From Planctomycetota bacterium (GTDB taxonomy: Bacteria > Planctomycetota > UBA1135): DNA of 64,000 nt. Made by a program: the position numbers and the translations under genes. The notes beneath the pieces are model-generated. The model did not search any database and was not told where the DNA came from. It saw only the letters and a program-made list of their open reading frames with translations. The stretch covers positions 2,381-66,380 of the forward strand of contig JAPYTC010000001.1 of assembly GCA_029941685.1 (NCBI GenBank), in the 5' to 3' direction. Below, piece by piece: positions 1 to 30,667 of the stretch; positions within the stretch are counted from its first letter, which is position 1; every line of letters begins with the position of its first letter.

Positions 1-231
1 CCCGTGATATCGAGTAACACTTCTTCTTTGCCGCAAGTTTGTGGTGATGCCGTTTTATATTGCGACCCAGCCGACGACCAATCTATCGCCGACCAAATTA
101 CTAAACTTTGTGGCGACGCTGAGCTGCGTAATAAGTTGATGATTGATGGCATTGCACAGTCGCAAAAATTTACCTGGCGAAAAGTAGCGCTCAACGTTTG
201 GCGCTCAATAGAAAAAACCTGCCGCGAATAA
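1..231 (+). CDS. glycosyltransferase (GT1/GT4-like), C-terminal fragment; the 5' end lies outside the window
   Basis: The frame-1 ORF is open at the left edge and stops at 229-231. The tail SSLPQVCGDAVLYCDP..D..SIADQI..L..D..LR..L...G......FTW resembles the C-terminal end of GT4-type glycosyltransferases. Confidence 0.55.
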   Translation, partial: PVISSNTSSLPQVCGDAVLYCDPADDQSIADQITKLCGDAELRNKLMIDGIAQSQKFTWRKVALNVWRSIEKTCRE

Positions 232-263
232 ACGCAACAGGTTTTTATGATTAGGGCGTCGAA

Positions 264-1049
264 TTAAAATTCGAGATCGTCGTCGGCAGGCGCACCTGCA
301 CCAGGACCACCTGACATCATTTGTAGCATTGCGGTAATGTCTTGAGCTTCTTTGTCGTAAACGAAGGTGCCTTCAGCAAACTCTTCTACAACAGCCGTGT
401 CTTTAGTTGTAATGGTAAACATCTCGCCTGTTGGGCGTTTGGCTTCAGCAGAGGCAAGCAAGAATGTGCTCGCGTGGAAACAAACCGTCATTGAACCCTC
501 TTCTTCTGAAGATGCTGCGTAACGGCGAAGCTCGTCGGTAGAGCCTTCTTCTGCAAGAGGTACTGCACCAAGAAGGCCTGCAACCATTGGCGCAATCATT
601 TCTGCTGTAGGCAGCTCTTCAACGCCAGCCATTTTCAGAATCTCTGAAAGCTTAACTTTTATTGGGCCATTAATCATGCCTTGTGACAATTCCGCAACAC
701 CTTCGATGTCGGCATAAAGAAATTCGCCGTCACACATGATCTTGTGGTTTTGCACCGTTTCGCCTTCGAACGGATCTTCGGATGTCATTGTTGCGGCAAT
801 AGAGAAGTGTGTAATATCTTGCATACTAATGTCAAAAGATATCGTTACGTCCCCTTCTGGAGACTCCGTTACAACCTCTAAACTCGACTTCCATTGGGAG
901 CCAAGCAGTGCGTTCGTGAATTTTTCTGCCAACTCAGAAGACGGTGAAACAGTTTCAGTAACTGGCACTTCAACTTCTTGGGCGGCGAGTGGAGCAACGC
1001 AAAGTAGTGCTGCTGTAATTAGGAAAGAGATGTTCTTCATTTCAGTCAT
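264..1049 (-). CDS. hypothetical secreted acidic protein
   Basis: 261-aa ORF with a signal peptide (ISFLITAALLCVAPLAAQE). The mature part is strongly acidic and ends in DDDLEF. No motif recognised. Confidence 0.6.
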   Translation of the reverse strand: MTEMKNISFLITAALLCVAPLAAQEVEVPVTETVSPSSELAEKFTNALLGSQWKSSLEVVTESPEGDVTISFDISMQDITHFSIAATMTSEDPFEGETVQNHKIMCDGEFLYADIEGVAELSQGMINGPIKVKLSEILKMAGVEELPTAEMIAPMVAGLLGAVPLAEEGSTDELRRYAASSEEEGSMTVCFHASTFLLASAEAKRPTGEMFTITTKDTAVVEEFAEGTFVYDKEAQDITAMLQMMSGGPGAGAPADDDLEF

Positions 1050-20079: not shown

Positions 20080-21204
20080 TTATGCGGTAATTCGCGAGTA
20101 TATTGTAATTAAATTCTCTAAGATTTGCGCGCTATCCCGGTGTAATTCGTCGTCCCAATGATACTTTTTGTCTTCACGGTCGTACAGCGGGTCATAATAG
20201 TGGTCTAGCAATACATCAACCAAGGCGTCGTGGTTTTCATTGGCTAGAAGCGCCTGCAATTCCCCCACCCATTTCGCTCCGATACGCGCTTCAAGAAACG
20301 GTAGCGCCGCGGCAATTTGTTGATTTGCATCAGGCTTCGCTAGGTAATCTTCTTGCAAGGTTTGCCGCCGATAAGGACGACTCGCCGCAATTTTCACTTG
20401 CGTTCCGCTAGTCATCTTATCAAACAACCCTTGGGGGATGACCACATCACCCACCTTGCGGCTCTCGCCTTCAATAAATGCGGGGCCATCTTTGAGTTCG
20501 AACAATCGCTGTAACAACATTGACTCAAAGCGTTTTTGACTTACCGGACACCGTCCTACTGCGCCTAATGCTGACGAGCGGTGGTTAGCCAGTGATTCTA
20601 AGCAGATCGTTGAATTGGGCACTACAGCCTCAATATCGGCAAGAAGATTGGTTTTCCCGACTCCGGTTCTACCGCGTAGTACGATGGCCGCTGGGTATGG
20701 ATAAGCATGGAGTGAATCCATCACCCACTGCCGATAACTTTTATAACCCCCCTCCAGCAGCACAGCGCGGATGCCTAGGGCTATCAATAAACTAACAAAT
20801 GACCGCGAGCGCATGCCGCCACGCCAACAATAAACCACCAATTCGGTATCGTCGGTTAGAGCTTGATTAACATCTATTGGGGTGGACTCTACTCCACCAC
20901 GCAAATTATGCGCGAGGATATCGAAGTTGCTTTTGAGTAAATCATTATCGATAGATTGCCCAAGCACCTGATTAAGTAAGTCTGGCAGGCGTTGCTCGAT
21001 TATCTTTAGGCCTTCGAGGTAAGCTTCGCCGGGGGAATGCTGTTTATAAAGTGTGCCTACCACTGCACGCTGCTCATCATCGAACAACGGTACGTTTTGA
21101 GCCCATGGTACGTGGTCTACCGCGTACTCACTTGGGCTACGAAGGTCGATCCAGCGCAGGTTTTTACGCTTTTTCAAGCTTTGGAAAGAAAAGGCAGGCA
21201 GCAA
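20080..21204 (-). CDS. selU: tRNA 2-selenouridine synthase
   Basis: 374 aa (TTG start) with the rhodanese active-site loop VVYCWRGGMRSRS and the P-loop LRGRTGVGKTNLL. The N-terminus has DLRSPSEYAVDHVPWAQNVPL..EQRAVVGTLYKQ. Confidence 0.85.
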   Translation of the reverse strand: MLPAFSFQSLKKRKNLRWIDLRSPSEYAVDHVPWAQNVPLFDDEQRAVVGTLYKQHSPGEAYLEGLKIIEQRLPDLLNQVLGQSIDNDLLKSNFDILAHNLRGGVESTPIDVNQALTDDTELVVYCWRGGMRSRSFVSLLIALGIRAVLLEGGYKSYRQWVMDSLHAYPYPAAIVLRGRTGVGKTNLLADIEAVVPNSTICLESLANHRSSALGAVGRCPVSQKRFESMLLQRLFELKDGPAFIEGESRKVGDVVIPQGLFDKMTSGTQVKIAASRPYRRQTLQEDYLAKPDANQQIAAALPFLEARIGAKWVGELQALLANENHDALVDVLLDHYYDPLYDREDKKYHWDDELHRDSAQILENLITIYSRITA

Positions 21205-21231
21205 AGGTGCCGCTACTTTAAATTATCCGCC

Positions 21232-22917
21232 ATGCAAAAGCTCATCGAATGTGTCCCGAACTTCAGCGAAGGCCGAAATTTAGAGATAATCAAGCAAATC
21301 ACCGACGAAATAACTCGGGTTGATGGCGTAACTTTACTCGATGTTGATCCGGGAGGGGCAACCAATCGCACGGTGGTCACATTCGTAGGCGAACCAGAGG
21401 CGGTTATTGAAGCTGCGGTGTTGGCGGGCCACAAGTCAAAGCAGCTCATCGATATGTCGAATCATAGCGGCGAACATCCACGATTCGGCGCCATGGACGT
21501 CTGCCCTTTAGTTCCCATTTCCGGAGTGAGTATGGATGAGACGGTCGAGTATGCACGGAAACTCGCCAAACGTTTGGGTGACGAGGTTGGTTTGAGTATT
21601 TACTGTTATGAAAACGCGGCTCTAGTAGACGAACGGCGAAATCTGGCTGTGGTCCGCGCTGGTGAGTACGAAGCACTAGCCACTCGCCTTCAAGATGAGC
21701 GTTGGGCTCCAGATTTCGGGCCGACTGATTTTCAAGCATCAACCGGCGCGACAGCAGTAAGCGCTCGCGATTTTTTGGTCGCTTACAATGTTAATTTAAA
21801 CACGACGTCCACACGACGCGCCAATGCTATTGCCTTTGATATTCGGGAAAAAGGGCGAATATTACGTAAGCCACACCCGATTACCGGTGAAATTCAGCGT
21901 GACGAGGACGGCAAAGCCATATGGTCGCCTGGAAGCCTCAAGGCAGTAAAAGGAATTGGTTGGTTTATTGAAGAGTTTGGCGTTTGTCAGGTTTCGATGA
22001 ATTTGACCAACGTGTCTATCACCTCTACCCACGTCGCTTTTGACGAAGTGCTCAATAAGGCTCAAGCGCGCGGTATTCGGGTAACCGGCTCCGAGCTAGT
22101 TGGCCTCATCCCCTTACAAGCCATGCTCGATGCTGGTCGCTACTTTTTAAAGAAACAGTCGCGCTCAACAGGTATTGCCGATGCCGAGCTAATCAAGATC
22201 GCGGTTAAGTCTATGGGGCTCGACGAGCTCTACCCTTTTAAGCCCGAAGAAAAGATTATCGAATACGTCTTGGAGGCTCAAAACAAGTCTCAGCGCTTGA
22301 TTAATCTGACGCTTCGTCAATTCTCCGAGCTCACAGCTTCCGAATCTCCTGCTCCAGGGGGAGGCTCTGTTGCAGCAACCCTAGGAGCGCTAGGAGCGGC
22401 ACTTGGGACCATGGTGGCCAACTTGTCCTCACACAAAGCTGGGTGGGATGATCGATGGGAAGAATTCTCTGCTTGGGCAGAACGCGGGAAAAAATGTCAT
22501 GACGAGTTGTTGTCGCTAATTGATAAAGACACCGATGCTTTCAACCAAATCATGGCTACATGGAAGCTGCCGTCCAATACGGATAGCGAAAAGGCTGACA
22601 AAGAAACTGCAACGCAAGCTGCTGTTCTTAACGCGATTGAAGTGCCATTCAGAATTATGGAAGTCGCCGCTGAAAGCCTCGAAGTTGCAGAAGCTATGGT
22701 GAACGATGGCATCCCAGCATCACTATCTGACGCCGGAGTTGCTGCCCTTTGCGCCCGCTCTGCAGTAATGGGAGCATACCTAAATGTAAAAATAAACAGC
22801 GGTGACTTGACGGATACCTCACGCCGCAATAAATTCCTCGACGATGGCGAAGCACTCCAGCAACATAGCATTGACGTCGAACAAAAAATATTATCGTTAG
22901 TAAATGGCCTTATTTGA
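21232..22917 (+). CDS. bifunctional glutamate formimidoyltransferase / formimidoyltetrahydrofolate cyclodeaminase
   Basis: The start is set at ATG 21232 (MQKLIECVPNFSEGR, the canonical FT N-terminus). The longer ORF from 21037 would overlap selU. The C-terminal cyclodeaminase motif is SESPAPGGGSVAATLGALGAALGTMVANLS. Confidence 0.85.
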   Translation: MQKLIECVPNFSEGRNLEIIKQITDEITRVDGVTLLDVDPGGATNRTVVTFVGEPEAVIEAAVLAGHKSKQLIDMSNHSGEHPRFGAMDVCPLVPISGVSMDETVEYARKLAKRLGDEVGLSIYCYENAALVDERRNLAVVRAGEYEALATRLQDERWAPDFGPTDFQASTGATAVSARDFLVAYNVNLNTTSTRRANAIAFDIREKGRILRKPHPITGEIQRDEDGKAIWSPGSLKAVKGIGWFIEEFGVCQVSMNLTNVSITSTHVAFDEVLNKAQARGIRVTGSELVGLIPLQAMLDAGRYFLKKQSRSTGIADAELIKIAVKSMGLDELYPFKPEEKIIEYVLEAQNKSQRLINLTLRQFSELTASESPAPGGGSVAATLGALGAALGTMVANLSSHKAGWDDRWEEFSAWAERGKKCHDELLSLIDKDTDAFNQIMATWKLPSNTDSEKADKETATQAAVLNAIEVPFRIMEVAAESLEVAEAMVNDGIPASLSDAGVAALCARSAVMGAYLNVKINSGDLTDTSRRNKFLDDGEALQQHSIDVEQKILSLVNGLI

Positions 22918-23551
22918 TCAACCTAAGCAAACTCGGCTCGAAGAGTACCTCAACGGATTGACCCATGGGGCAGGGTTTTTCTTGTGCTTGATCGCCTCGC
23001 CCTATCTCATGTATCAAGCGTACTACGCTCAAACCGATTATGCTGTCATCGCATGTGCGGTTTTCTGCAGCTCAATGTTATTGATGTACGGTGCATCGAC
23101 CATCTATCATCTCACCAACTCCCCGCGGCGCAAAATGCAAATGCGTTCGCTTGACCATATTTGCATTTTCGTCCTTATCGCTGGCAGCTACACCCCTTTT
23201 GCGCTCCTTGCTTTGCCTGCAGATTGGGGAATAACTTTTTTTATCACGGCTTGGTCATTGGCGATCATCGGCATTGCTTTCAAAATCTGGTTCTTTGAGC
23301 GCTTCGAGAAAATTTCTTATCTCTTCTATTTAGCGATGGGGTGGTTGTCAATCTTCGGCTACACACCGTTAAAGCAGGCCCTTGGCGATGGTGGCATGTG
23401 GTTGCTCATTGGAGGTGGTGCCGCCTACACCATCGGAATTCTATTCTTCTTGTTAGACCAAAGAATCCGCTTCTTTCACACGTTATGGCACCTTTTCGTG
23501 GTCGCTGGCAGTGCCTTTCATTTTTTAGCCGTTTATAAATACGTTATTTAA
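22904..23551 (+). CDS. hemolysin III / PAQR-family membrane protein
   Basis: 215 aa with seven TM helices and the motifs EEYLNGLTHG, SSMLLMYGASTIYH, DHICIFVLIAGSYTP and FHTLWHLFV. Confidence 0.85.
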   Translation: MALFDQPKQTRLEEYLNGLTHGAGFFLCLIASPYLMYQAYYAQTDYAVIACAVFCSSMLLMYGASTIYHLTNSPRRKMQMRSLDHICIFVLIAGSYTPFALLALPADWGITFFITAWSLAIIGIAFKIWFFERFEKISYLFYLAMGWLSIFGYTPLKQALGDGGMWLLIGGGAAYTIGILFFLLDQRIRFFHTLWHLFVVAGSAFHFLAVYKYVI

Positions 23552-23910
23552 GTCAGTAGACGCTCTATCTCTGCCATGAGCTCACGTGGCGCAACAGGCT
23601 TCTTGAATATCGATGCGCCAAGTTTTTCGGCGAGCTCAAGATAAGACTCAGCGCGATTCGCACCACCACCCGACATTGCAATAATCGGCATCGACGGATA
23701 ATCGCGCCGCGCCACCATGATGTTTTCAATGCCTTCGCTGTTGGGCATGATTAAATCGGTAAGCATTAAGTCAAACTGCTGCTCAGCAAGGGCTGCTGCT
23801 GCTTGCGCACCATCACCAACAGCAACCACTACATGCCCGATATGCTCGAGTAAACGCTGTAAGGTATCGCGAATATCTGCATCGTCTTCGGCAAGTAAAA
23901 GGAGTGCCAT
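23548..23910 (-). CDS. stand-alone CheY-like response-regulator receiver
   Basis: The start is set at ATG 23910 (MALLLLAEDDADIRDTL), giving 120 aa. The phospho-acceptor context is DLMLTDLIMP, followed by MPIIAMSGGG and KKP. The longer ORF would overlap the divergent kinase gene. Confidence 0.85.
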   Translation of the reverse strand: MALLLLAEDDADIRDTLQRLLEHIGHVVVAVGDGAQAAAALAEQQFDLMLTDLIMPNSEGIENIMVARRDYPSMPIIAMSGGGANRAESYLELAEKLGASIFKKPVAPRELMAEIERLLT

Positions 23911-23942
23911 GTTTTTATTATAGTTAAGTCGCCTTTCCAACC

Positions 23943-26453
23943 ATGACGCCCACCACCAACAATGATTCTGTTGAGCCCAAGTTGCCCGACAATTTCTCAG
24001 AGCTTTTTCTAGACGCTGAGCTAGAGCTTCTTGGTCGCCAAATGCGTGCCGGACTACCGATTGGCATTGTCTTGTATTTATGTTTTTCTGCACTCGACTG
24101 GCTGGTCGCTCCAGAATTATTTAATACTTTTTTATCCTTACGCCTGGTAGCAATTGTTTTCCCGCTGGCGATGATACCGTTGTCCAAATCTGAATTCGGA
24201 CGGCTCAAAATTCGCGGTCTGGCGCTAATGACTTTATTGCTTGGTGCTTGTTCCATGGTATTGATGTGTTTTTTACTTGGAGGTTTCGCAAGCAACTACT
24301 TCGTGGGTTTGATTCTTATGATGTTTTTCGTTGGCCTGTTTCTACCATGGGGCATTCGCAACAACATTATTTTTTTGGGTTTGACTAACGCCGCGTACTT
24401 CGCAAGTAGTATTTACCGTAGCGACGGATTTGTCGGTGCTGAAATGCCCATAGCCTTCATGCTTGGCTCGACAGTGCTTACTCACCTGGCTGCCAATATG
24501 ATGGAGCGGTCTCGACATCGGGCATTCGCGATGCACTTGCAGCTCGAACAGGCGAATAATGACTTACAAGAGCTCGACCGCGCCAAGTCACGGTTCTTTT
24601 CGAACATCAATCACGAGTTGCGCACTCCATTGATGTTAATCATGGGGCCTCTCGAATCAATGATTCGTGGCGACAAGGTTAATCAACAACGCATGTTTAA
24701 ATCAATGAACGCCAATGCACGACGGTTGTTGCGCCAGGTAAACTCAATCCTGACTTTATCCAAGCTTGATGCCGACAAACTCGAGTGCCGTCGCGAACTT
24801 TTTTCCTTGCACACAATCATTGAGGAGCTAGTCCTCAGCGCACAGCCCTTTGCTGAACAGCGAGGCATCAACTTACACCACCAAGGTGTCGCCGATCTTC
24901 CGAGCTTACCTCTCGACCCTGAACAAATAGAAACCGTTTTTGCCAACCTCGTTTCCAATGCATTGAAGTTTTCCGAAGATGGTGGTGAAATAATAGTTGA
25001 GGGCTCATTAGAACGTAATCACTTGTGCATAACCGTTAAAGACCAGGGCCGCGGCATCGAAGCCGCGCAGCTGCCGTATATTTTCGATCGCTTTCACCAA
25101 GCACCTGAGAAACTGGGTGGTAAAACCCAAGGCACGGGCCTGGGCTTAGCTTTAGCAAAAGACCTAGTCGAAATGCATGGCGGCAGCATTAGTGCTATTA
25201 GTGAAATAAACATAGGGACTACTTTCACCATTCACTTGCCAACCCTTGAAGCGAGTGATTGGGATTCTCAACAAGAACCCGCGTCTACTTCTACCGCCGC
25301 GGGTTCGAACATGGGTTATATGGCTCTCCCTGAATTGCCAGACAATGCGCCACTCGAGCCTGCTCCGGAAAACGCGCCGCGAATTTTAATTGTTGAAGAC
25401 AACCCTGACATGCGTAACTTTTTGGCAACCGCACTCGCTTCGAAATACAACGTGCTCACCGCCGAAGATGGTAAATTGGGTTTATTGGCCGCGCGTCGCG
25501 AACACCCGGACGTTATTTTGTCCGACGTACAAATGCCGGTCATGGGCGGCTTCGCAATGTTGGCTGAATTAAGAAAAGACCATAGCTTCGACCGCACTCC
25601 CGTGTTGATGCTCACCGCTCACTCTGAATCATCGGCGATGGTTGAAAGCTTAGAGCTTGGCGCAGTCGATTATATTCATAAGCCATTTAAGTTGACCGAA
25701 ATTGAAGCGCGGATTGCTGCCCACTTACGCACCATTTCTATGCTTGAGGAGATAGACGAACGTGATTCTCGATTGGTTGCTGTTGGTCAAATAGCAAGCA
25801 CTCTAGCACATGATATGCGTGGTCCGTTAACGTCAATTATTAATCGTGCTGAACTGTTGCGCATCATGACAGAGGGTGGTGAGAAAGACGAATTGGTTGA
25901 TCAAGAAATCGCTGCGATCGAGCAGTCAGTACGCAGGGTAAATTCCATGATTCAAGAATTGCTTGAATTCGTTAGTGGGCGCGAGGTGGTACTTGAACAA
26001 TCCGTAACGGTCGTTGAAGACTTAATGGCGCCGGTGGCCGCCGAATCGCAAATGGCTCTGCAGCATTCAGGGATTGAGTGGTCGTTTTTAATGCAAGGCG
26101 GTGAAAATAAATTACTTGTTGACCGCCATCGTTTTTCCAGAATCATTGAGAACATTATTAATAATGCGCGGGACGCTCTACTTAGTTCAAACACCGCGTC
26201 GCCGAAGGTTAGTTTGCACGTGTCAACAGATGAATCACATTTGATTTTATCTATCAGTGACAACGGCCCCGGTATCCCACAAGATGTCGCAAATTCATTA
26301 TTTCAACCATACGCCACCGCCGGCAAAGCGCAAGGACACGGTCTCGGCTTAGCGATTGTGCGAAACCTAGTAACTGCAAACGGAGGCTCGGTCAGCCTCG
26401 ACTCAACGGTTGAGTGCGGCTCATCGTTTATTATAAAACTACCTTTGCTATAG
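23943..26453 (+). CDS. membrane hybrid sensor kinase with HK-REC-HK architecture
   Basis: 836 aa with about 6 N-terminal TM helices. The first kinase core has H-box FFSNINHELRTPL, N/G boxes NLVSNALKF, DQGRGI and GTGLGLALA. The receiver is ILIVEDNPDMR...VILSDVQMP...KPF. The second kinase core has H-box STLAHDMRGPLTSI, then NIINNARDAL, DNGPGIP and GHGLGLAIV. Confidence 0.9.
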   Translation: MTPTTNNDSVEPKLPDNFSELFLDAELELLGRQMRAGLPIGIVLYLCFSALDWLVAPELFNTFLSLRLVAIVFPLAMIPLSKSEFGRLKIRGLALMTLLLGACSMVLMCFLLGGFASNYFVGLILMMFFVGLFLPWGIRNNIIFLGLTNAAYFASSIYRSDGFVGAEMPIAFMLGSTVLTHLAANMMERSRHRAFAMHLQLEQANNDLQELDRAKSRFFSNINHELRTPLMLIMGPLESMIRGDKVNQQRMFKSMNANARRLLRQVNSILTLSKLDADKLECRRELFSLHTIIEELVLSAQPFAEQRGINLHHQGVADLPSLPLDPEQIETVFANLVSNALKFSEDGGEIIVEGSLERNHLCITVKDQGRGIEAAQLPYIFDRFHQAPEKLGGKTQGTGLGLALAKDLVEMHGGSISAISEINIGTTFTIHLPTLEASDWDSQQEPASTSTAAGSNMGYMALPELPDNAPLEPAPENAPRILIVEDNPDMRNFLATALASKYNVLTAEDGKLGLLAARREHPDVILSDVQMPVMGGFAMLAELRKDHSFDRTPVLMLTAHSESSAMVESLELGAVDYIHKPFKLTEIEARIAAHLRTISMLEEIDERDSRLVAVGQIASTLAHDMRGPLTSIINRAELLRIMTEGGEKDELVDQEIAAIEQSVRRVNSMIQELLEFVSGREVVLEQSVTVVEDLMAPVAAESQMALQHSGIEWSFLMQGGENKLLVDRHRFSRIIENIINNARDALLSSNTASPKVSLHVSTDESHLILSISDNGPGIPQDVANSLFQPYATAGKAQGHGLGLAIVRNLVTANGGSVSLDSTVECGSSFIIKLPLL

Positions 26454-26463
26454 CCCTAGCTAG

Positions 26464-27942
26464 CTATCCGTTCGTTGCTCGCAAGAACAAACAACGATTC
26501 GTTATGTCTGCTATAACCTCAGAGTTGACCGGCAAGACACTACCAAGGTCGTGCATTTGTTGCTCGGTGCGGTAAATTAAGTGCCAGGCCGATGCGTATT
26601 CAATTAGCCACGAACTATCCGTGGTACGCACTAGATTGCCTATCAGTAATTCGCCGCCTTCCCTTAGCATGCCAAACAATTCATTGACCGTGCGTTGGGC
26701 AAGAAATTGGGGCAAGTAGTCAAATAACCCCATTGAGTAGACGAGGTCTACATCTTTCAGCACCTGGCTTACCAGTTCGCGTTCGGCGCCTCTTTTGGGT
26801 GCCATAATTTGTCGCAACGAAAAATGTAAACAATGAAATTCAATGGGGGGGTTATCGCCACGTTCAGCACAAATTTTAGTCAATGCGTTCAGGCAATTAC
26901 GCAAGGCGTCTTCGTCTTGATCAATAAGAAAAATATCGATTTTATAATCGATATTTTTCGTTTCGCGGACAAACGTGCGTAGCTCCATGGCTGGGCCCGA
27001 TGCAAGTGAAACTATTTTCGTCGGACGGTTTAACGCCGCTACCTTACTAATTGCGTCAAGCGCAACCTTGCCGCGTGCACAAACTGTTTTACCTAAGGGC
27101 ATTTCTTGCGAGAAGTATTGCAAAAATCGTTGATACAAAGTGTCGCCCTCAAGATCCTCGGCTTGGGTCAACTCCATCATGCGAAAATCACCCGCATAGC
27201 CTTGTGGTTTTTCGTATGCCCTGCGCTGAATTTCTCCATGCGTTAATTCGCGCATTAACAATGTTTGTGAAAAGTTAAGAGCTAGGTCTTTAGTATCAGC
27301 GTCAAACTTGGACGAGGTTTGGTCGAGGCGCGATGCAATCTCCAAAAATTGTGGTGCCCATTTTTGGAATGTTGCCGCACACAATCGTCTCGACATATCT
27401 ACTTCACGCCATCGATTCTCGGTGTCGCTTTTTTGATAGGCATCAAGAGTGGTGTGTACCTCGCACAACATCGAATGTAATTGCGCAACGTCGGCCTGCC
27501 AATCTTGTGGTAAACCAGAGGCCTGCTCATCGCGGCGCAACAAGTACCTTTCGAGACGATATTCGAGGAATTCGTCTCTGAACTGAAGTTCTGCCAAACT
27601 AATGTGCCCGGTGATAACCCTAAACCCAGCTGATTTACTTTCGTCGCCGAGGCTGCTCACTTCAATTGAGCCAGACCAAAACAATTGCTTGTGATGGTAT
27701 ATTTCGACACCATCGATTAATTGCCCGACGCGTATCTCAAGTGGTTGCTCAGACTCAATCGCCATCCCTGTGGACGACACATTGGTAACTAGATATTCGC
27801 GGCCGCCAAATTGGCAGCGAGGAACATGATTTAATTCGTTTGAATTAAGCCTATCACTACGAAAACGGAATTTACTCGTTGCGCCCTGAAGGGCAGCGTG
27901 AACAGCGCCGTTTACGATTGATTGAGGTTCTGATTGGGTCAT
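26464..27942 (-). CDS. class I SAM-dependent methyltransferase with N-terminal PilZ-like domain
   Basis: 492 aa. The N-terminus has FRFRSDR...YLVTNVSSTGMAIES, a PilZ-like (D/N)xSxxG. The C-terminus has IVSLASGPAMEL (motif I-like), IFLIDQDEDAL and DLVYSMGLFDYL. Confidence 0.7.
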   Translation of the reverse strand: MTQSEPQSIVNGAVHAALQGATSKFRFRSDRLNSNELNHVPRCQFGGREYLVTNVSSTGMAIESEQPLEIRVGQLIDGVEIYHHKQLFWSGSIEVSSLGDESKSAGFRVITGHISLAELQFRDEFLEYRLERYLLRRDEQASGLPQDWQADVAQLHSMLCEVHTTLDAYQKSDTENRWREVDMSRRLCAATFQKWAPQFLEIASRLDQTSSKFDADTKDLALNFSQTLLMRELTHGEIQRRAYEKPQGYAGDFRMMELTQAEDLEGDTLYQRFLQYFSQEMPLGKTVCARGKVALDAISKVAALNRPTKIVSLASGPAMELRTFVRETKNIDYKIDIFLIDQDEDALRNCLNALTKICAERGDNPPIEFHCLHFSLRQIMAPKRGAERELVSQVLKDVDLVYSMGLFDYLPQFLAQRTVNELFGMLREGGELLIGNLVRTTDSSWLIEYASAWHLIYRTEQQMHDLGSVLPVNSEVIADITNRCLFLRATNG

Positions 27943-27999
27943 GGGGCAACAAATGACGTGAGCATTCGTAGCAATCGACCATTAATGGGCTGATTATCC

Positions 28000-28668
28000 C
28001 TATCTTTCCCTAGAAGATTTTAGGGGGGCCTGATTGCGCCGCGTATCGTGTTGACCACCCCACATCTTGTGTCTGCCGCTAACAATCCTTTGAATTTCTC
28101 GGAAAAAGTGTTCGGCTGGCATAGCGACTAACCTCTGTTTTTCCTTTAGATCGATGTTCTGCGCGAGCCAAAACCCTTCTCGGTTGGCTTTTTCAAGGAA
28201 CTGCCATTTACGAATCGACAACAGCACCTGCAGGGCCTCTTCCACCGAAGCTTGTTCAAGCCACGTTGCGGTTTTGTCGCCCAACCACCCATCGACATGG
28301 GCTTGGCGCAGGGCCTCTCGTATACGAGATTCGCGCTGGCGCAGATCATGGTGTGGAGGGCGTTGTGGCCGTGGTGGCCGCGTAACACTCTTGTCCATGC
28401 GAGAGCGAACTGCCGTTCGCATGTATCGTCGTTGCTCACGTTTGCCCATTACGCCGAACTTTTCGAGTTCTTCGGCGCTCATTTCGGCCAGTAATTGTTC
28501 GCGTTCGGCATCGAAAATCGCTTGGCGTTTTGAATACTCTTGCTGTTGCTCATCACTTAATTGGCTCCACCACTGTTTAGCACTAACTTGTGGTTGATGT
28601 GGTGGTGATGATTGGGGCGCAAGCTCTTGTTGAGCCAAGGCCACCAATGCGAAAGTTGCCAAAATCAT
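28000..28668 (-). CDS. hypothetical exported Arg/Gln-rich helical protein (third gene of ECF module 3)
   Basis: 222 aa with the signal-like N-terminus MILATFALVALAQQ and the segments WWSQLSDEQQQEY and RPPRPQRPP. Its start overlaps the upstream stop (TAATG at 28666-28670). Confidence 0.55.
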   Translation of the reverse strand: MILATFALVALAQQELAPQSSPPHQPQVSAKQWWSQLSDEQQQEYSKRQAIFDAEREQLLAEMSAEELEKFGVMGKREQRRYMRTAVRSRMDKSVTRPPRPQRPPHHDLRQRESRIREALRQAHVDGWLGDKTATWLEQASVEEALQVLLSIRKWQFLEKANREGFWLAQNIDLKEKQRLVAMPAEHFFREIQRIVSGRHKMWGGQHDTRRNQAPLKSSRER

Positions 28669-29051
28669 TACTTGGCCTCGCTATTAAGGATGTCGAGCGC
28701 AAAATCGACCACTTCAATGGCCACCCGTGAGTCTTGGGTAGCGTCTGTTTCTGACAGTTGGAGCCAATCAAGGATCTCGAGGTTGGCATAGATGGAATCA
28801 ATATCAACCGCCGCCATATCTGCATCGTGCTCGACGTCGACCGGAATGCTCATGGAGCGACTTCCTTGCCCTATCCAAATACCCAATGCCAACATAACAG
28901 ATGCTGCTACCGCAAAACCGCTTGCTCTCATGAATGATGTGCGCCTCTGGTGAGCATTAGGCTCAACCTCACGCATCACAGACTCGACAAAACCTGCCGG
29001 CACAGCTGCCGGGGTGTCGGAATCTAGCATATCGTTAAGCCAATCAGTCAT
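28668..29051 (-). CDS. putative single-pass membrane anti-sigma factor
   Basis: The start is set at ATG 29051 (MTDWLNDMLD), overlapping the sigma stop by 8 nt. It has one TM helix (GFAVAASVMLALGIWIG) and lies immediately downstream of the ECF sigma gene. Confidence 0.6.
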   Translation of the reverse strand: MTDWLNDMLDSDTPAAVPAGFVESVMREVEPNAHQRRTSFMRASGFAVAASVMLALGIWIGQGSRSMSIPVDVEHDADMAAVDIDSIYANLEILDWLQLSETDATQDSRVAIEVVDFALDILNSEAK

Positions 29052-29673
29052 TTTCGGAATCCTTATAGGGTTGTAGAACCTCGCGCAAATTGGTTCGCGC
29101 ACGATGTAACATTGATTTGACGGCCGAGCCGCTAAGACCTGTTACTAATGCAATTTCATCTAGATCTAGACCGTCGTAATGTTGAAACACTAAAACCGCG
29201 CGTTGGTTGTGCGGAAGTTGCTCTAATCCCCAAGAAACTAGGCCCGCCCAATCATCTGAACTAACTGCGGCTTCTGGGGGGGCAGACTTCGGGTCTTGTT
29301 GCGTAATTTCGGCGCCATCATCGCCCTTCGGCATCATATGCAAGGGTTTGCGCTTTTCGTCACGAATGCGGTTAAGCGCTAAATTGTAAGTAACCCGGTA
29401 TAAAAAAGTCGAGAATTTGCCTTGAGCGCGATAGTTTTCGCGGCTTCTCCATATTCGCACAAAGACCTCTTGTGACACATCTTCGATGGCGCCTCGTGGC
29501 CCAAGTATGCGCCGTAACAAGGCAAAAACCATGGATTGATAACTTTCGACCAACAACGCGAATGCTTGATGGTCGCCCTTGGCTACACCAACCATGAGTT
29601 CGACGCCAACATCTGGTGCGAAATCATTAGGGCTTGGGTTATTACTCAAAAGGCCATCCGTTATTATCTGCAT
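29044..29673 (-). CDS. ECF-type RNA polymerase sigma factor (sigma-24/RpoE-like)
   Basis: Region 2 is GDHQAFALLVESYQSMVFALL..AIEDVSQEVFVRIWRS...FSTFLYRVTYNLALNRIRD. Region 4 is LPHNQRAVLVFQHYDGLDLDEIALVTGLSGSAVKSMLHRARTNL. The start is uncertain; an alternative ATG lies at 29595. Confidence 0.85.
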   Translation of the reverse strand: MQIITDGLLSNNPSPNDFAPDVGVELMVGVAKGDHQAFALLVESYQSMVFALLRRILGPRGAIEDVSQEVFVRIWRSRENYRAQGKFSTFLYRVTYNLALNRIRDEKRKPLHMMPKGDDGAEITQQDPKSAPPEAAVSSDDWAGLVSWGLEQLPHNQRAVLVFQHYDGLDLDEIALVTGLSGSAVKSMLHRARTNLREVLQPYKDSEND

Positions 29674-30667
29674 TGCGTGGCCACAACTTTGTTGCTACGC
29701 CTATTACTTGAGCTGCCGAAACCGGACCGTAGTGGCGCGAGTCGCGGCTGTATTTAGAATTGTCTCCGAGAAAGAAAAACTCGTCGCCCGATATTTTTAA
29801 CACCTGGGCTACACCGAAGTTTCCTGAAATATCATAGTTTATTTCACACCCTATCTTTACATTTTTGAAAGAGCATTGCCCGTGCATCTCAAAAAATAAT
29901 TGTTCGTGCGGCGAATCGCCTCCCGCCGTCCAATCTTTTGTCGCTTCAACCGTAACACTTTCTCCAACATGAACGCCGTCGACAAATGCTGATAGCTGGT
30001 TGTGTGCAACCGAAATTAGTAAGTCGTGCTCTTGCCCGGGTTCACCAACAAGCATGCCGTGAGCCAATTTCGTATTCACCTGCTTCTCATCATCAAAGCT
30101 ATATATTGACCACTCACTAGTCATCGAGTTTATTGAAAGTCGATATTGGTTACTGCCACGAGCAATGACGAGCGTAAAAGATGTTGACGGTTGTAACTTA
30201 CATGTAACCTCGAAGGCATGCCCGAAGTGGTCATTTGGTTTTTGTAATCCAACTTGTGTGGCCTTGGCCGATGATGTCCACCACCCGTTTTGGTAGGCCA
30301 AGTTCTTGTTCTTCAACATAAACTTATTCTCAAGTTCTGAATCGATGCCGGGCCATTCGGCCAACAAGTCTTTAATGCCACTTATCGGCGCAGTGTTTGT
30401 TTCGCCATTAATGTAAAGTTTGCCCCCAACAATCTGCACGGTATCTCCCTGAATTGCCACACATCGCTTAACAACTTTTTCGCCACTATCCGGCTCGATT
30501 ATTACCGCGAGTTCGCCGCGTGTTGGGGCACGGCTTTCTTGCCATAGCCATTGCCCCGATTCTAGGCCTGGTGTCATCGAGGCACCAACAACGTGGGCGG
30601 TTTTCTGCAAGACAATAGCCATTAATATTATTGCAACGGCAATGATATAAATGTGGGGTTTTCGCAA
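29642..30667 (-). CDS. lepB: signal peptidase I with a long insertion between boxes D and E
   Basis: 341 aa with a TM anchor. The S26 boxes are GASMTPGL (Ser), VKRCVAIQGDTV (Lys) and GDNSKYSRDSRHYGPV. Confidence 0.8.
   Translation of the reverse strand: MRKPHIYIIAVAIILMAIVLQKTAHVVGASMTPGLESGQWLWQESRAPTRGELAVIIEPDSGEKVVKRCVAIQGDTVQIVGGKLYINGETNTAPISGIKDLLAEWPGIDSELENKFMLKNKNLAYQNGWWTSSAKATQVGLQKPNDHFGHAFEVTCKLQPSTSFTLVIARGSNQYRLSINSMTSEWSIYSFDDEKQVNTKLAHGMLVGEPGQEHDLLISVAHNQLSAFVDGVHVGESVTVEATKDWTAGGDSPHEQLFFEMHGQCSFKNVKIGCEINYDISGNFGVAQVLKISGDEFFFLGDNSKYSRDSRHYGPVSAAQVIGVATKLWPRNADNNGWPFE

Follow-up and report, generated by a model that had tools for sequence, protein, structure and literature searches.

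Is the signalling system that Ralstonia solanacearum builds from its phcBSRQ genes peculiar to that bacterium and its close relatives, or do recognisable forms of it exist in other phyla? The question is raised by three adjacent genes of a Planctomycetota bacterium (lineage UBA1135), in a stretch of 64,000 nt, termed the window in what follows, from contig JAPYTC010000001.1 of assembly GCA_029941685.1 (positions 2,381–66,380, forward strand). They encode a stand-alone receiver (23548–23910, (−) strand), a membrane hybrid histidine kinase (23943–26453, (+) strand) and an S-adenosylmethionine (SAM)-dependent methyltransferase (26464–27942, (−) strand). In Ralstonia, PhcB makes methyl 3-hydroxymyristate or methyl 3-hydroxypalmitate (3-OH MAME/PAME), which is sensed by PhcS (PMC8578825, PMC11960443). 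An earlier note, made from the letters of the window, had drawn a parallel between the three genes and phcBSRQ. Our analysis bears this parallel out in its main part: the locus is probably homologous to the signal synthase and receptor module of the Ralstonia Phc system, though distantly and with its genes rearranged.

Searched alone, the 492-amino-acid (aa) methyltransferase has no match in Pfam, NCBIfam or the PDB sequences (phmmer) at E ≤ 0.1, and its domains were resolved only through family profiles and structure prediction. A first homology search gave 283 relatives, the closest of them from metagenome-assembled genomes (MAGs) of Planctomycetota, consistent with a planctomycete origin. 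Automated annotation at the Joint Genome Institute (JGI) already labels some of the homologues phcB. Many relatives are named there ‘extracellular factor (EF) 3-hydroxypalmitic acid methyl ester biosynthesis protein’, which we take to be the wording of KEGG orthology entry K19620 (phcB). The 90% cluster of the window protein itself is called ‘hypothetical protein’, and a cluster 72% identical carries the phcB name.

Authentic PhcB had to be reached stepwise. A scan of GTDB with the pattern KPxGYAGD, using one genome per species, found at least 586 loci with a relative; the best 80 were analysed, and Ralstonia is absent from these 80. The path led from Hydrogenophaga (locus L077) to a Paraburkholderia graminis plasmid (L081), then to Cupriavidus and Ralstonia. 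The reference chosen was ‘class I SAM-dependent methyltransferase PhcB [Ralstonia pseudosolanacearum]’ (P0263) from locus L082, where the products of phcB, phcS, phcR and phcQ have 467, 442, 374 and 336 aa. BLASTP aligns the window protein with this PhcB at E 1e-22, with 26% identity over 366 residues (window 146–489, PhcB 121–461). When an alignment of 36 homologues of the window protein (A1) is compared by hhalign with an alignment of Burkholderiales PhcB (A2), the match grows to 453 collinear columns, window 40–492 against PhcB 8–466 (probability 100%, E 1.3e-46). In the reverse direction, the PhcB profile matches this open reading frame (ORF) only, among all stop-to-stop ORFs of the window (E 7.5e-34). 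Two motifs, KPxGYAGD[YF] and [VI]Y[SC]xGL[FY]DY, are invariant both in A1 and in Burkholderiales PhcB. By BLASTP, hhalign and the reverse profile search, the protein groups with PhcB and not with rRNA or ubiquinone methyltransferases. Judged by its sequence it is a member of the PhcB family, composed of a PilZ-fold barrel, a helical domain and a class I SAM methyltransferase.

This three-part layout is seen in an AlphaFold2 (AF2) model of the 492-aa protein, with a predicted local distance difference test (pLDDT) score of 89.9: a beta-barrel at residues 31–109, a helical domain at 116–302 and a Rossmann methyltransferase at 308–490. The helical domain (residues ∼116–302; 27037–27597, (−) strand) bears the family-defining motif K245-P-Q-G-Y-A-G-D252, whose counterpart in Burkholderiales PhcB is K220-PLGYAGD227. 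The class I SAM methyltransferase domain (residues ∼308–490; 26473–27021, (−) strand) is identified from its Rossmann topology in the AF2 model and from invariant A1 columns. It contains motif I as L313-ASGPAME320, followed by D341-Q-D343, Y402-SMGLFDY409 and G435-N436; these motifs align with GCGPAxE, D319 and YCAGLFDYL of PhcB. G316, P317, E320 and D341 are invariant in A1, so that the SAM-binding core is intact, with motif I in the variant form ASGPA. Pfam matches among the A1 homologues are all weak (Methyltransf_12 in 25/36, CheR in 22/36 and PilZ in 17/36), and the A1 profile finds in the PDB the YcgR PilZ domain (E 0.0036) and the CheR core (E 0.0095). Foldseek with the whole protein places small-molecule SAM methyltransferases on top, with E from 1e-9 to 1e-7: 3ocj, SgvM, the CurJ C-MT, NovO and O-methyltransferases. 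The AF2 Rossmann domain, these structural matches and the Pfam matches of the family agree with the C-terminal class I methyltransferase that the earlier note had called from the sequence. Some longer members of the family (P0325, P0326, P0335, P0343, P0383 and P0425; ∼600–985 aa) have a profile match that starts 110–520 residues in, and in some of these the match falls into two stretches; the synthase of some lineages thus seems to carry additional N-terminal domains.

The N-terminal barrel (residues ∼25–112; 27607–27870, (−) strand) has a PilZ fold. Modelled alone (domain model pLDDT 89.8), it retrieves PilZ domains as all of its top ∼40 Foldseek matches in the PDB, at template modelling (TM) scores of ∼0.5–0.62, among them Alg44, MapZ, YcgR, BcsA, PlzA and MrkH. 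By sequence it has a profile match to the PilZ domain of YcgR (E 0.004–0.009). The (D/N)xSxxG motif is present as N54-V-S56-S-T-G59 and aligns with ‘DLSLGG’ of YcgR; in A1, position 54 is D or N in 36/36, S56 is kept in at least 90% and G59 is invariant. Ahead of it lies an arginine-rich loop, F25-R26-F-R28-S-D-R31, of the form RxRxxR, in which R28 and R31 are invariant; AF2 models this loop at low confidence, and residues 1–24 at pLDDT below 50. Both the PilZ signature and the arginine loop are carried by 23/80 loci, mainly in Planctomycetota and Myxococcota. Burkholderiales PhcB has ‘IINLQRKSL’ at the position of the signature and no arginine-rich loop, although the barrel aligns there too, with PhcB residues 8–∼110 (hhalign). 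The PilZ-like input that had been proposed as an addition to the synthase is therefore real as a PilZ-fold domain and is not an addition, since PhcB has an N-terminal barrel as well. What is special here, going by the alignments, is that the PilZ signature motifs and invariant arginines, lost in Burkholderiales PhcB, are retained. Quorum responsiveness in Ralstonia is altered by an adaptive R22C substitution in the N-terminal portion of PhcB, outside the methyltransferase domain (PMC6989110), in keeping with a role of this region in the enzyme.

Binding of cyclic di-GMP (c-di-GMP) by the predicted PilZ domain is plausible. MapZ of Pseudomonas aeruginosa, a PilZ protein that binds the class I SAM methyltransferase CheR1 and inhibits it, offers a precedent by analogy, and MapZ structures (5xly, 5y4r) are among the top barrel matches. 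That system works in trans on a chemotaxis protein methyltransferase, whereas here the PilZ domain is fused in cis to a PhcB-type enzyme; and MapZ is c-di-GMP-bound, whereas binding here is only putative, with a first PilZ motif that is non-canonical.

The kinase supplies the second line of evidence. BLASTP aligns its residues 35–436 with PhcS 22–442 (E 8e-23) and its residues 471–834 with PhcR 1–374 (E 2e-19; E 4e-21 in a pairwise run), collinear and end to end. The phrase ‘PhcS plus PhcR in one chain’, coined from domain architecture, thus turns out to be literally true by sequence, and comparison of the two halves with PhcS and PhcR gives a match for both. On this evidence the 836-aa protein joins two kinases in one reading frame, a MASE8 membrane kinase resembling PhcS and a receiver (Rec)-controlled kinase resembling PhcR. 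The order of its Pfam domains agrees with the membrane kinase–receiver–kinase architecture described before. A separate PhcS polypeptide of ∼440 aa is not the form found here, and most homologues outside Burkholderiales are also fused, at ∼850–950 aa. Hydrogenophaga (L077) has adjacent S and R genes in the same frame with one stop codon between them, and a single tblastn alignment with the window kinase spans both.

The N-terminus is a multi-pass membrane sensor of MASE8 type (residues ∼35–202; 24045–24548, (+) strand), the putative ligand-binding site. In a crude hydropathy scan ∼5 hydrophobic segments run through most of residues 34–180. The direct Pfam match to MASE8 (PF20968) covers the whole profile, at E 0.02 and 15.5 bits against a gathering cutoff of 26.2. 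Profile–profile comparison is firmer: by hhalign the sensors of the window kinase family match the PhcS sensor group over 186 columns (99.8%, E 3.5e-30) and the Pfam-confirmed MASE8 domains of cyclase and GGDEF-EAL proteins (97.6%, E 3.4e-12). For Ralstonia PhcS (L082:9418–10746), a precomputed Pfam match to MASE8, unmarked as weak, was not reproduced by hmmscan at E ≤ 0.01, and the relation of PhcS to MASE8 is therefore taken from the profile–profile comparison.

The first kinase core, HisKA plus HATPase_c (residues 214–434; 24582–25244, (+) strand), has H224 as phospho-acceptor and G boxes at 367 and 397. The phosphorylated histidine of PhcS is H230 (PMC11960443); we confirmed it in the sequence, and H224 occupies the equivalent position. 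An internal receiver follows (residues 481–591; 25383–25715, (+) strand; Pfam Response_reg E 1e-27), with phospho-acceptor D528; it aligns with the receiver of PhcR, ‘LSDVQMP’ against ‘LTDFRMP’. The second kinase core (residues ∼606–835; 25758–26447, (+) strand) is identified by HisKA, by Pfam HATPase_c and GHKL and by the PhcR alignment, with its H-box at A622-H623-DMRGPL, G1 at D773-NGPGI and G2 at G798-HGLGL. The receiver aspartate, H-box histidine and G boxes of PhcR are thus all conserved, as D528, H623, DNGPGI and GHGLGL, and the internal receiver and second core form a Rec-controlled kinase module like PhcR and LvrB.

LvrB belongs to the Lvr phosphorelay of Leptospira, in which the hybrid kinase LvrA signals to the Rec-controlled kinase LvrB and on to LvrC. 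Phosphorylation of the LvrB receiver releases the catalytic core for autophosphorylation, after which a downstream receiver is phosphorylated (PMC13269768). The window kinase has the same arrangement of receiver, dimerization and histidine phosphotransfer (DHp) and catalytic (CA) domains, in which a phosphorylated receiver would activate a second kinase acting on a downstream receiver. Its best NCBIfam match is hybrid_HK_LvrA (NF047465), residues 201–835 against positions 188–818 of a profile of 819, which suggests the same domain order as LvrA downstream of the sensor region. Membership in LvrA was rejected: at 315 bits the score falls short of the 1200-bit cutoff, and the alignment leaves out the sensor. 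The Lvr system differs further in that the literature searched associates no PhcB-type synthase with it; the PhcB-family gene of Leptospira alstonii (L033) adjoins a PP2C membrane protein.

The third gene fits the parallel less well. The small receiver (120 aa from its ATG; Pfam Response_reg E 5e-19; phospho-acceptor D52) is a lone receiver domain, as the earlier note had it, and is not the counterpart of PhcQ. That note had taken PhcQ for a stand-alone CheY-like receiver, which is wrong: PhcQ, encoded downstream of phcR, has 336 aa, with a long extension C-terminal to its receiver. The 120-aa receiver has no BLASTP similarity at E < 0.01 either to PhcQ or to the receiver of PhcR, and in the window the receiver of PhcQ matches only the internal receiver of the kinase. 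A role as PhcQ was rejected on length (120 against 336 aa), on its divergent orientation from the kinase and on the lack of a match at E < 0.01. The gene is nonetheless a regular part of the locus: a divergent small receiver stands beside the kinase in six planctomycete loci (L002, L003, L006, L007, L014 and L017). An upstream GTG at 24093 would lengthen its ORF to 181 aa and make it overlap the kinase start; we prefer the 120-aa form because homologues align only from its residue 13.

All three genes lie as first described, with a gap of 32 bp between the divergent receiver and kinase and of 10 bp between the convergent kinase and methyltransferase, and the convergent and divergent arrangement agrees with the observation that they are not one operon. 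Is the arrangement itself conserved? The convergent pair of methyltransferase and kinase occurs in eight planctomycete loci (L001, L002, L003, L005, L006, L007, L014 and L017), and the planctomycete neighbourhood is conserved down to 33–38% methyltransferase identity; in one Candidatus Multivoradales locus (L011) the kinase is divergent. Over the 80 loci analysed, a PhcS-like kinase, accepted where its alignment included the membrane sensor at E < 1e-10, lies within ∼150 bp of the methyltransferase in 39. In these paired loci it is mostly a fused S+R kinase of ∼850–950 aa, co-directional with the methyltransferase, with junctions of −3 to +18 bp, overlapping or of 4 bp in most. They span Planctomycetota, Myxococcota, Verrucomicrobiota, Nitrospirota, Methylomirabilota and Gamma- and Betaproteobacteria (including Chromatiaceae and Hydrogenophaga). 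Synteny in relatives, which the earlier note had named as a check, is thus kept in eight planctomycete genomes and, for the methyltransferase–kinase pair, in many phyla. A methyltransferase of unrelated family without syntenic partners, the outcome that would have spoken against the parallel, is not what we found. The family is large: an exhaustive profile search yielded ∼1,397 clusters (at 50% identity) at E ≤ 1e-30 and 4,035 at E ≤ 1e-10.

Other sensors replace the kinase in some loci. In Sideroxydans (L070:4982–9383) the methyltransferase is flanked by a MASE8-adenylate/guanylate cyclase and a MASE8-GGDEF-EAL protein, and in a betaproteobacterial MAG (L064:601–2992) it lies beside a MASE8-cyclase. 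Its neighbour is a membrane cyclase in Bdellovibrio bacteriovorus (L047:7563–10488) and a membrane SpoIIE/PP2C phosphatase in Leptospira alstonii (L033:7455–10258). One synthase family beside membrane sensors with varied outputs fits a ligand synthase–receptor cassette.

Two further observations concern the kinase genes. An extra REC-kinase (PhcR-like) gene follows the fused kinase in L012, L013, L015, L019, L022 and L024, and likewise in L046, L053, L059, L060, L071 and L076; these loci therefore have two PhcR-type modules. In Ralstonia pseudosolanacearum CP051171.1 (L083:9404–11846) no phcS is called between phcB and phcR, and an HTH/DDE_3 transposase gene is found instead, which suggests a natural insertion-sequence disruption of phcS.

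Set against Ralstonia phcBSRQ as a whole, the locus has the same three-domain methyltransferase layout and family motifs (E 1.3e-46), a homologous MASE8-type sensor with its phosphorylated histidine at H224 here and H230 in PhcS, a PhcR-like REC-DHp-CA module with conserved aspartate, histidine and G boxes, and synthase and sensor genes that are neighbours. It differs in that identities are only ∼23–26% and the host belongs to another phylum. PhcS and PhcR are separate there and a single 836-aa chain here; the genes are one operon there, whereas synthase and kinase are convergent here; and the 336-aa PhcQ contrasts with a 120-aa receiver. The PilZ motifs RxRxxR and NxSxxG are absent from PhcB, and motif I is GCGPA in PhcB and ASGPA here. 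The Phc system also has a LysR output regulator, PhcA: in Cupriavidus metallidurans phcA (Rmet_2977) lies apart from the operon that holds phcBSRQ (Rmet_2949-52) (PMC2864759).

From these likenesses a working scheme can be drawn. The methyltransferase would use SAM to methylate a small hydrophobic carboxylic acid and, by analogy with PhcB, may convert a 3-hydroxy fatty acid to a membrane-permeant methyl ester. The ester would accumulate, partition into the membrane and be sensed by the multi-pass MASE8 domain, and sensing would alter autophosphorylation at H224. The phosphoryl group would then pass from H224 to D528 of the internal receiver, and phosphorylation of D528 may switch on the second core (H623), as in Rec-controlled kinases of the LvrB type. 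The H623 core would in turn phosphorylate a downstream receiver; the obvious candidate for this terminal phospho-acceptor is the conserved 120-aa receiver (D52), encoded divergently. Through the PilZ domain, synthesis of the signal probably responds to c-di-GMP or to a similar nucleotide, which is the most speculative step.

The surroundings of the three genes in the window are as follows. On the receiver side lie a formiminotransferase-cyclodeaminase (FTCD; 21037–22917, (+) strand) and a membrane protein of the TrhA/hemolysin-III family (22904–23551, (+) strand) that adjoins the receiver gene, their convergent stops (TrhA and receiver) overlapping by 4 bp. TrhA and FTCD remain in synteny with the module in both L002 and L003. 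On the other side, upstream of the methyltransferase and on its own strand, are an ORF of 222 aa without family match (ORF222; 28000–28668, (−) strand), 57 bp away, then a putative anti-sigma (28668–29102, (−) strand) and an extracytoplasmic function (ECF)-type sigma factor (29044–29673, (−) strand; Pfam Sigma70_r2 and r4). All three are kept upstream of the methyltransferase in L002, and the methyltransferase may be co-transcribed with this cluster. For comparison with the anti-sigma near the methyltransferase here, the target of the Rec-kinase LvrB in Leptospira, LvrC, is an anti-sigma factor. Only 32 bp separate the divergent start codons of receiver and kinase, so their promoters must fall within coding sequence. 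A promoter and terminator scan of 23300–29900 gave counts at shuffle expectation, with no signal above chance. The terminator scan did find a palindrome with a 14-bp stem, GAAAAATATCGATTATAAAATCGATATTTTTC, at 26928–26959; it falls within the coding sequence of the methyltransferase, where it specifies part of KNIDYKIDIFL.

Several points weigh against a homologue of the Phc module. Because identity to PhcB is only 26%, substrate and product are not confidently transferable from it, and motif I is ASGPA in the window protein against GCGPA in PhcB. The first PilZ motif is RxRxxR and lacks the canonical RxxxR (i, i+4) spacing. Synthase and kinase are convergent and not in one operon, no PhcQ-like protein is present at the locus, and 41/80 loci have no adjacent PhcS-like kinase by the criteria used. 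Even among closer relatives of Ralstonia the chemistry may vary: no extractable 3-OH PAME was reported for Cupriavidus metallidurans, which may produce a variant structure (PMC2864759). Signal export and the reporting of cell density would be carried over from Phc by analogy.

A competing explanation is a Phc homologue that does not act between cells, in which the methylated lipid would be a private cue, informing the MASE8 kinase of the same cell about envelope or fatty-acid status or about c-di-GMP. We consider this rather unlikely, yet it is the strongest of the competing explanations. MASE8 is by its Pfam family name an integral membrane domain, in keeping with the hydrophobic segments over most of residues 34–180; the PilZ domain of the synthase suits an intracellular input; an ECF sigma and a putative anti-sigma precede the methyltransferase; and the family is found in many free-living, low-density marine MAG lineages. 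The sole characterised member, however, is PhcB, which makes a diffusible quorum signal, and small methyl esters cross membranes, so strict privacy would be hard to keep.

A second possibility changes the substrate. If the enzyme were a CheR-like protein methyltransferase, it would modify the kinase or another signalling protein, and the PilZ domain would give c-di-GMP control as MapZ does for CheR1, whose complexes (5xly, 5y4r) are among the structural matches of the PilZ domain. Weak CheR Pfam matches in 22/36 homologues, the match of the family profile to Bacillus CheR (5ftw; E 0.0095) and one Paraburkholderia PhcB homologue annotated as a CheR-type methyl-accepting chemotaxis protein (MCP) methyltransferase point this way. 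The CheR signal is nevertheless far weaker than that of PhcB (E ∼1e-2 against 1e-46) and is confined to the common SAM-binding core, which PhcB itself has too; Foldseek puts natural-product and small-molecule methyltransferases on top and not CheR, and no MCP or Che genes are adjacent to the methyltransferase. We hold a CheR-like role to be improbable. Membership in CheR (PF01739) was itself rejected: the window protein has no Pfam match, the homologues match weakly (best E 1.2e-5) and the PDB match covers the CheR SAM core only. Least credible of all is chance adjacency, with an ordinary class I methyltransferase and an ordinary hybrid kinase functionally unconnected. In its favour are the absence of a common operon, the abundance of histidine kinases and the lack of a direct Pfam match for the 492-aa protein, but every module is specifically homologous to PhcB, PhcS or PhcR, the pairing recurs in 39/80 loci across several phyla, and the methyltransferase also pairs with MASE8 sensors of other outputs. 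Synteny and homology already contradict it.

The distant Phc homologue thus being the reading we prefer, how far does it extend? Published accounts of the Phc system concern the Ralstonia solanacearum species complex; they report orthologues from Cupriavidus and R. pickettii and mention Paraburkholderia homologues. In the literature searched, no Phc system is described outside Burkholderiaceae, nothing relevant deals with a PhcB bearing PilZ, the top-ranked papers for other phyla do not mention PhcB, and the papers naming MASE8 give no ligand for it. We regard the locus as a Phc-type module of Planctomycetota, distantly related, fused in its kinase and equipped with PilZ motifs; its family is large and, outside Burkholderiaceae, uncharacterised. 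A bolder generalisation, which we regard as possible and on balance doubtful, would make PhcB-family methyltransferases and MASE8 sensors a pan-bacterial cassette whose ligand is a lipid methyl ester or some small lipid akin to it. On the output side it would have branched into two-component phosphorelays, cyclases for cAMP/cGMP, c-di-GMP enzymes and PP2C phosphatases, and a fused PilZ domain would gate synthesis by c-di-GMP in the Planctomycetota and Myxococcota branch. If true, no quorum-sensing-like system would have been assigned in Planctomycetota before this cassette, and MASE8 would gain its first ligand class.

A marine planctomycete, then, has recognisable homologues of the Phc synthase and of both sensor modules. 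This suggests a wide bacterial distribution for a type of signalling so far described from Ralstonia and its near relatives alone. Should the chemistry prove conserved, the module would be a candidate for chemical communication in Planctomycetota and its product a candidate ligand class for MASE8, and the PilZ domain of the synthase would suggest a direct link between c-di-GMP and autoinducer production.

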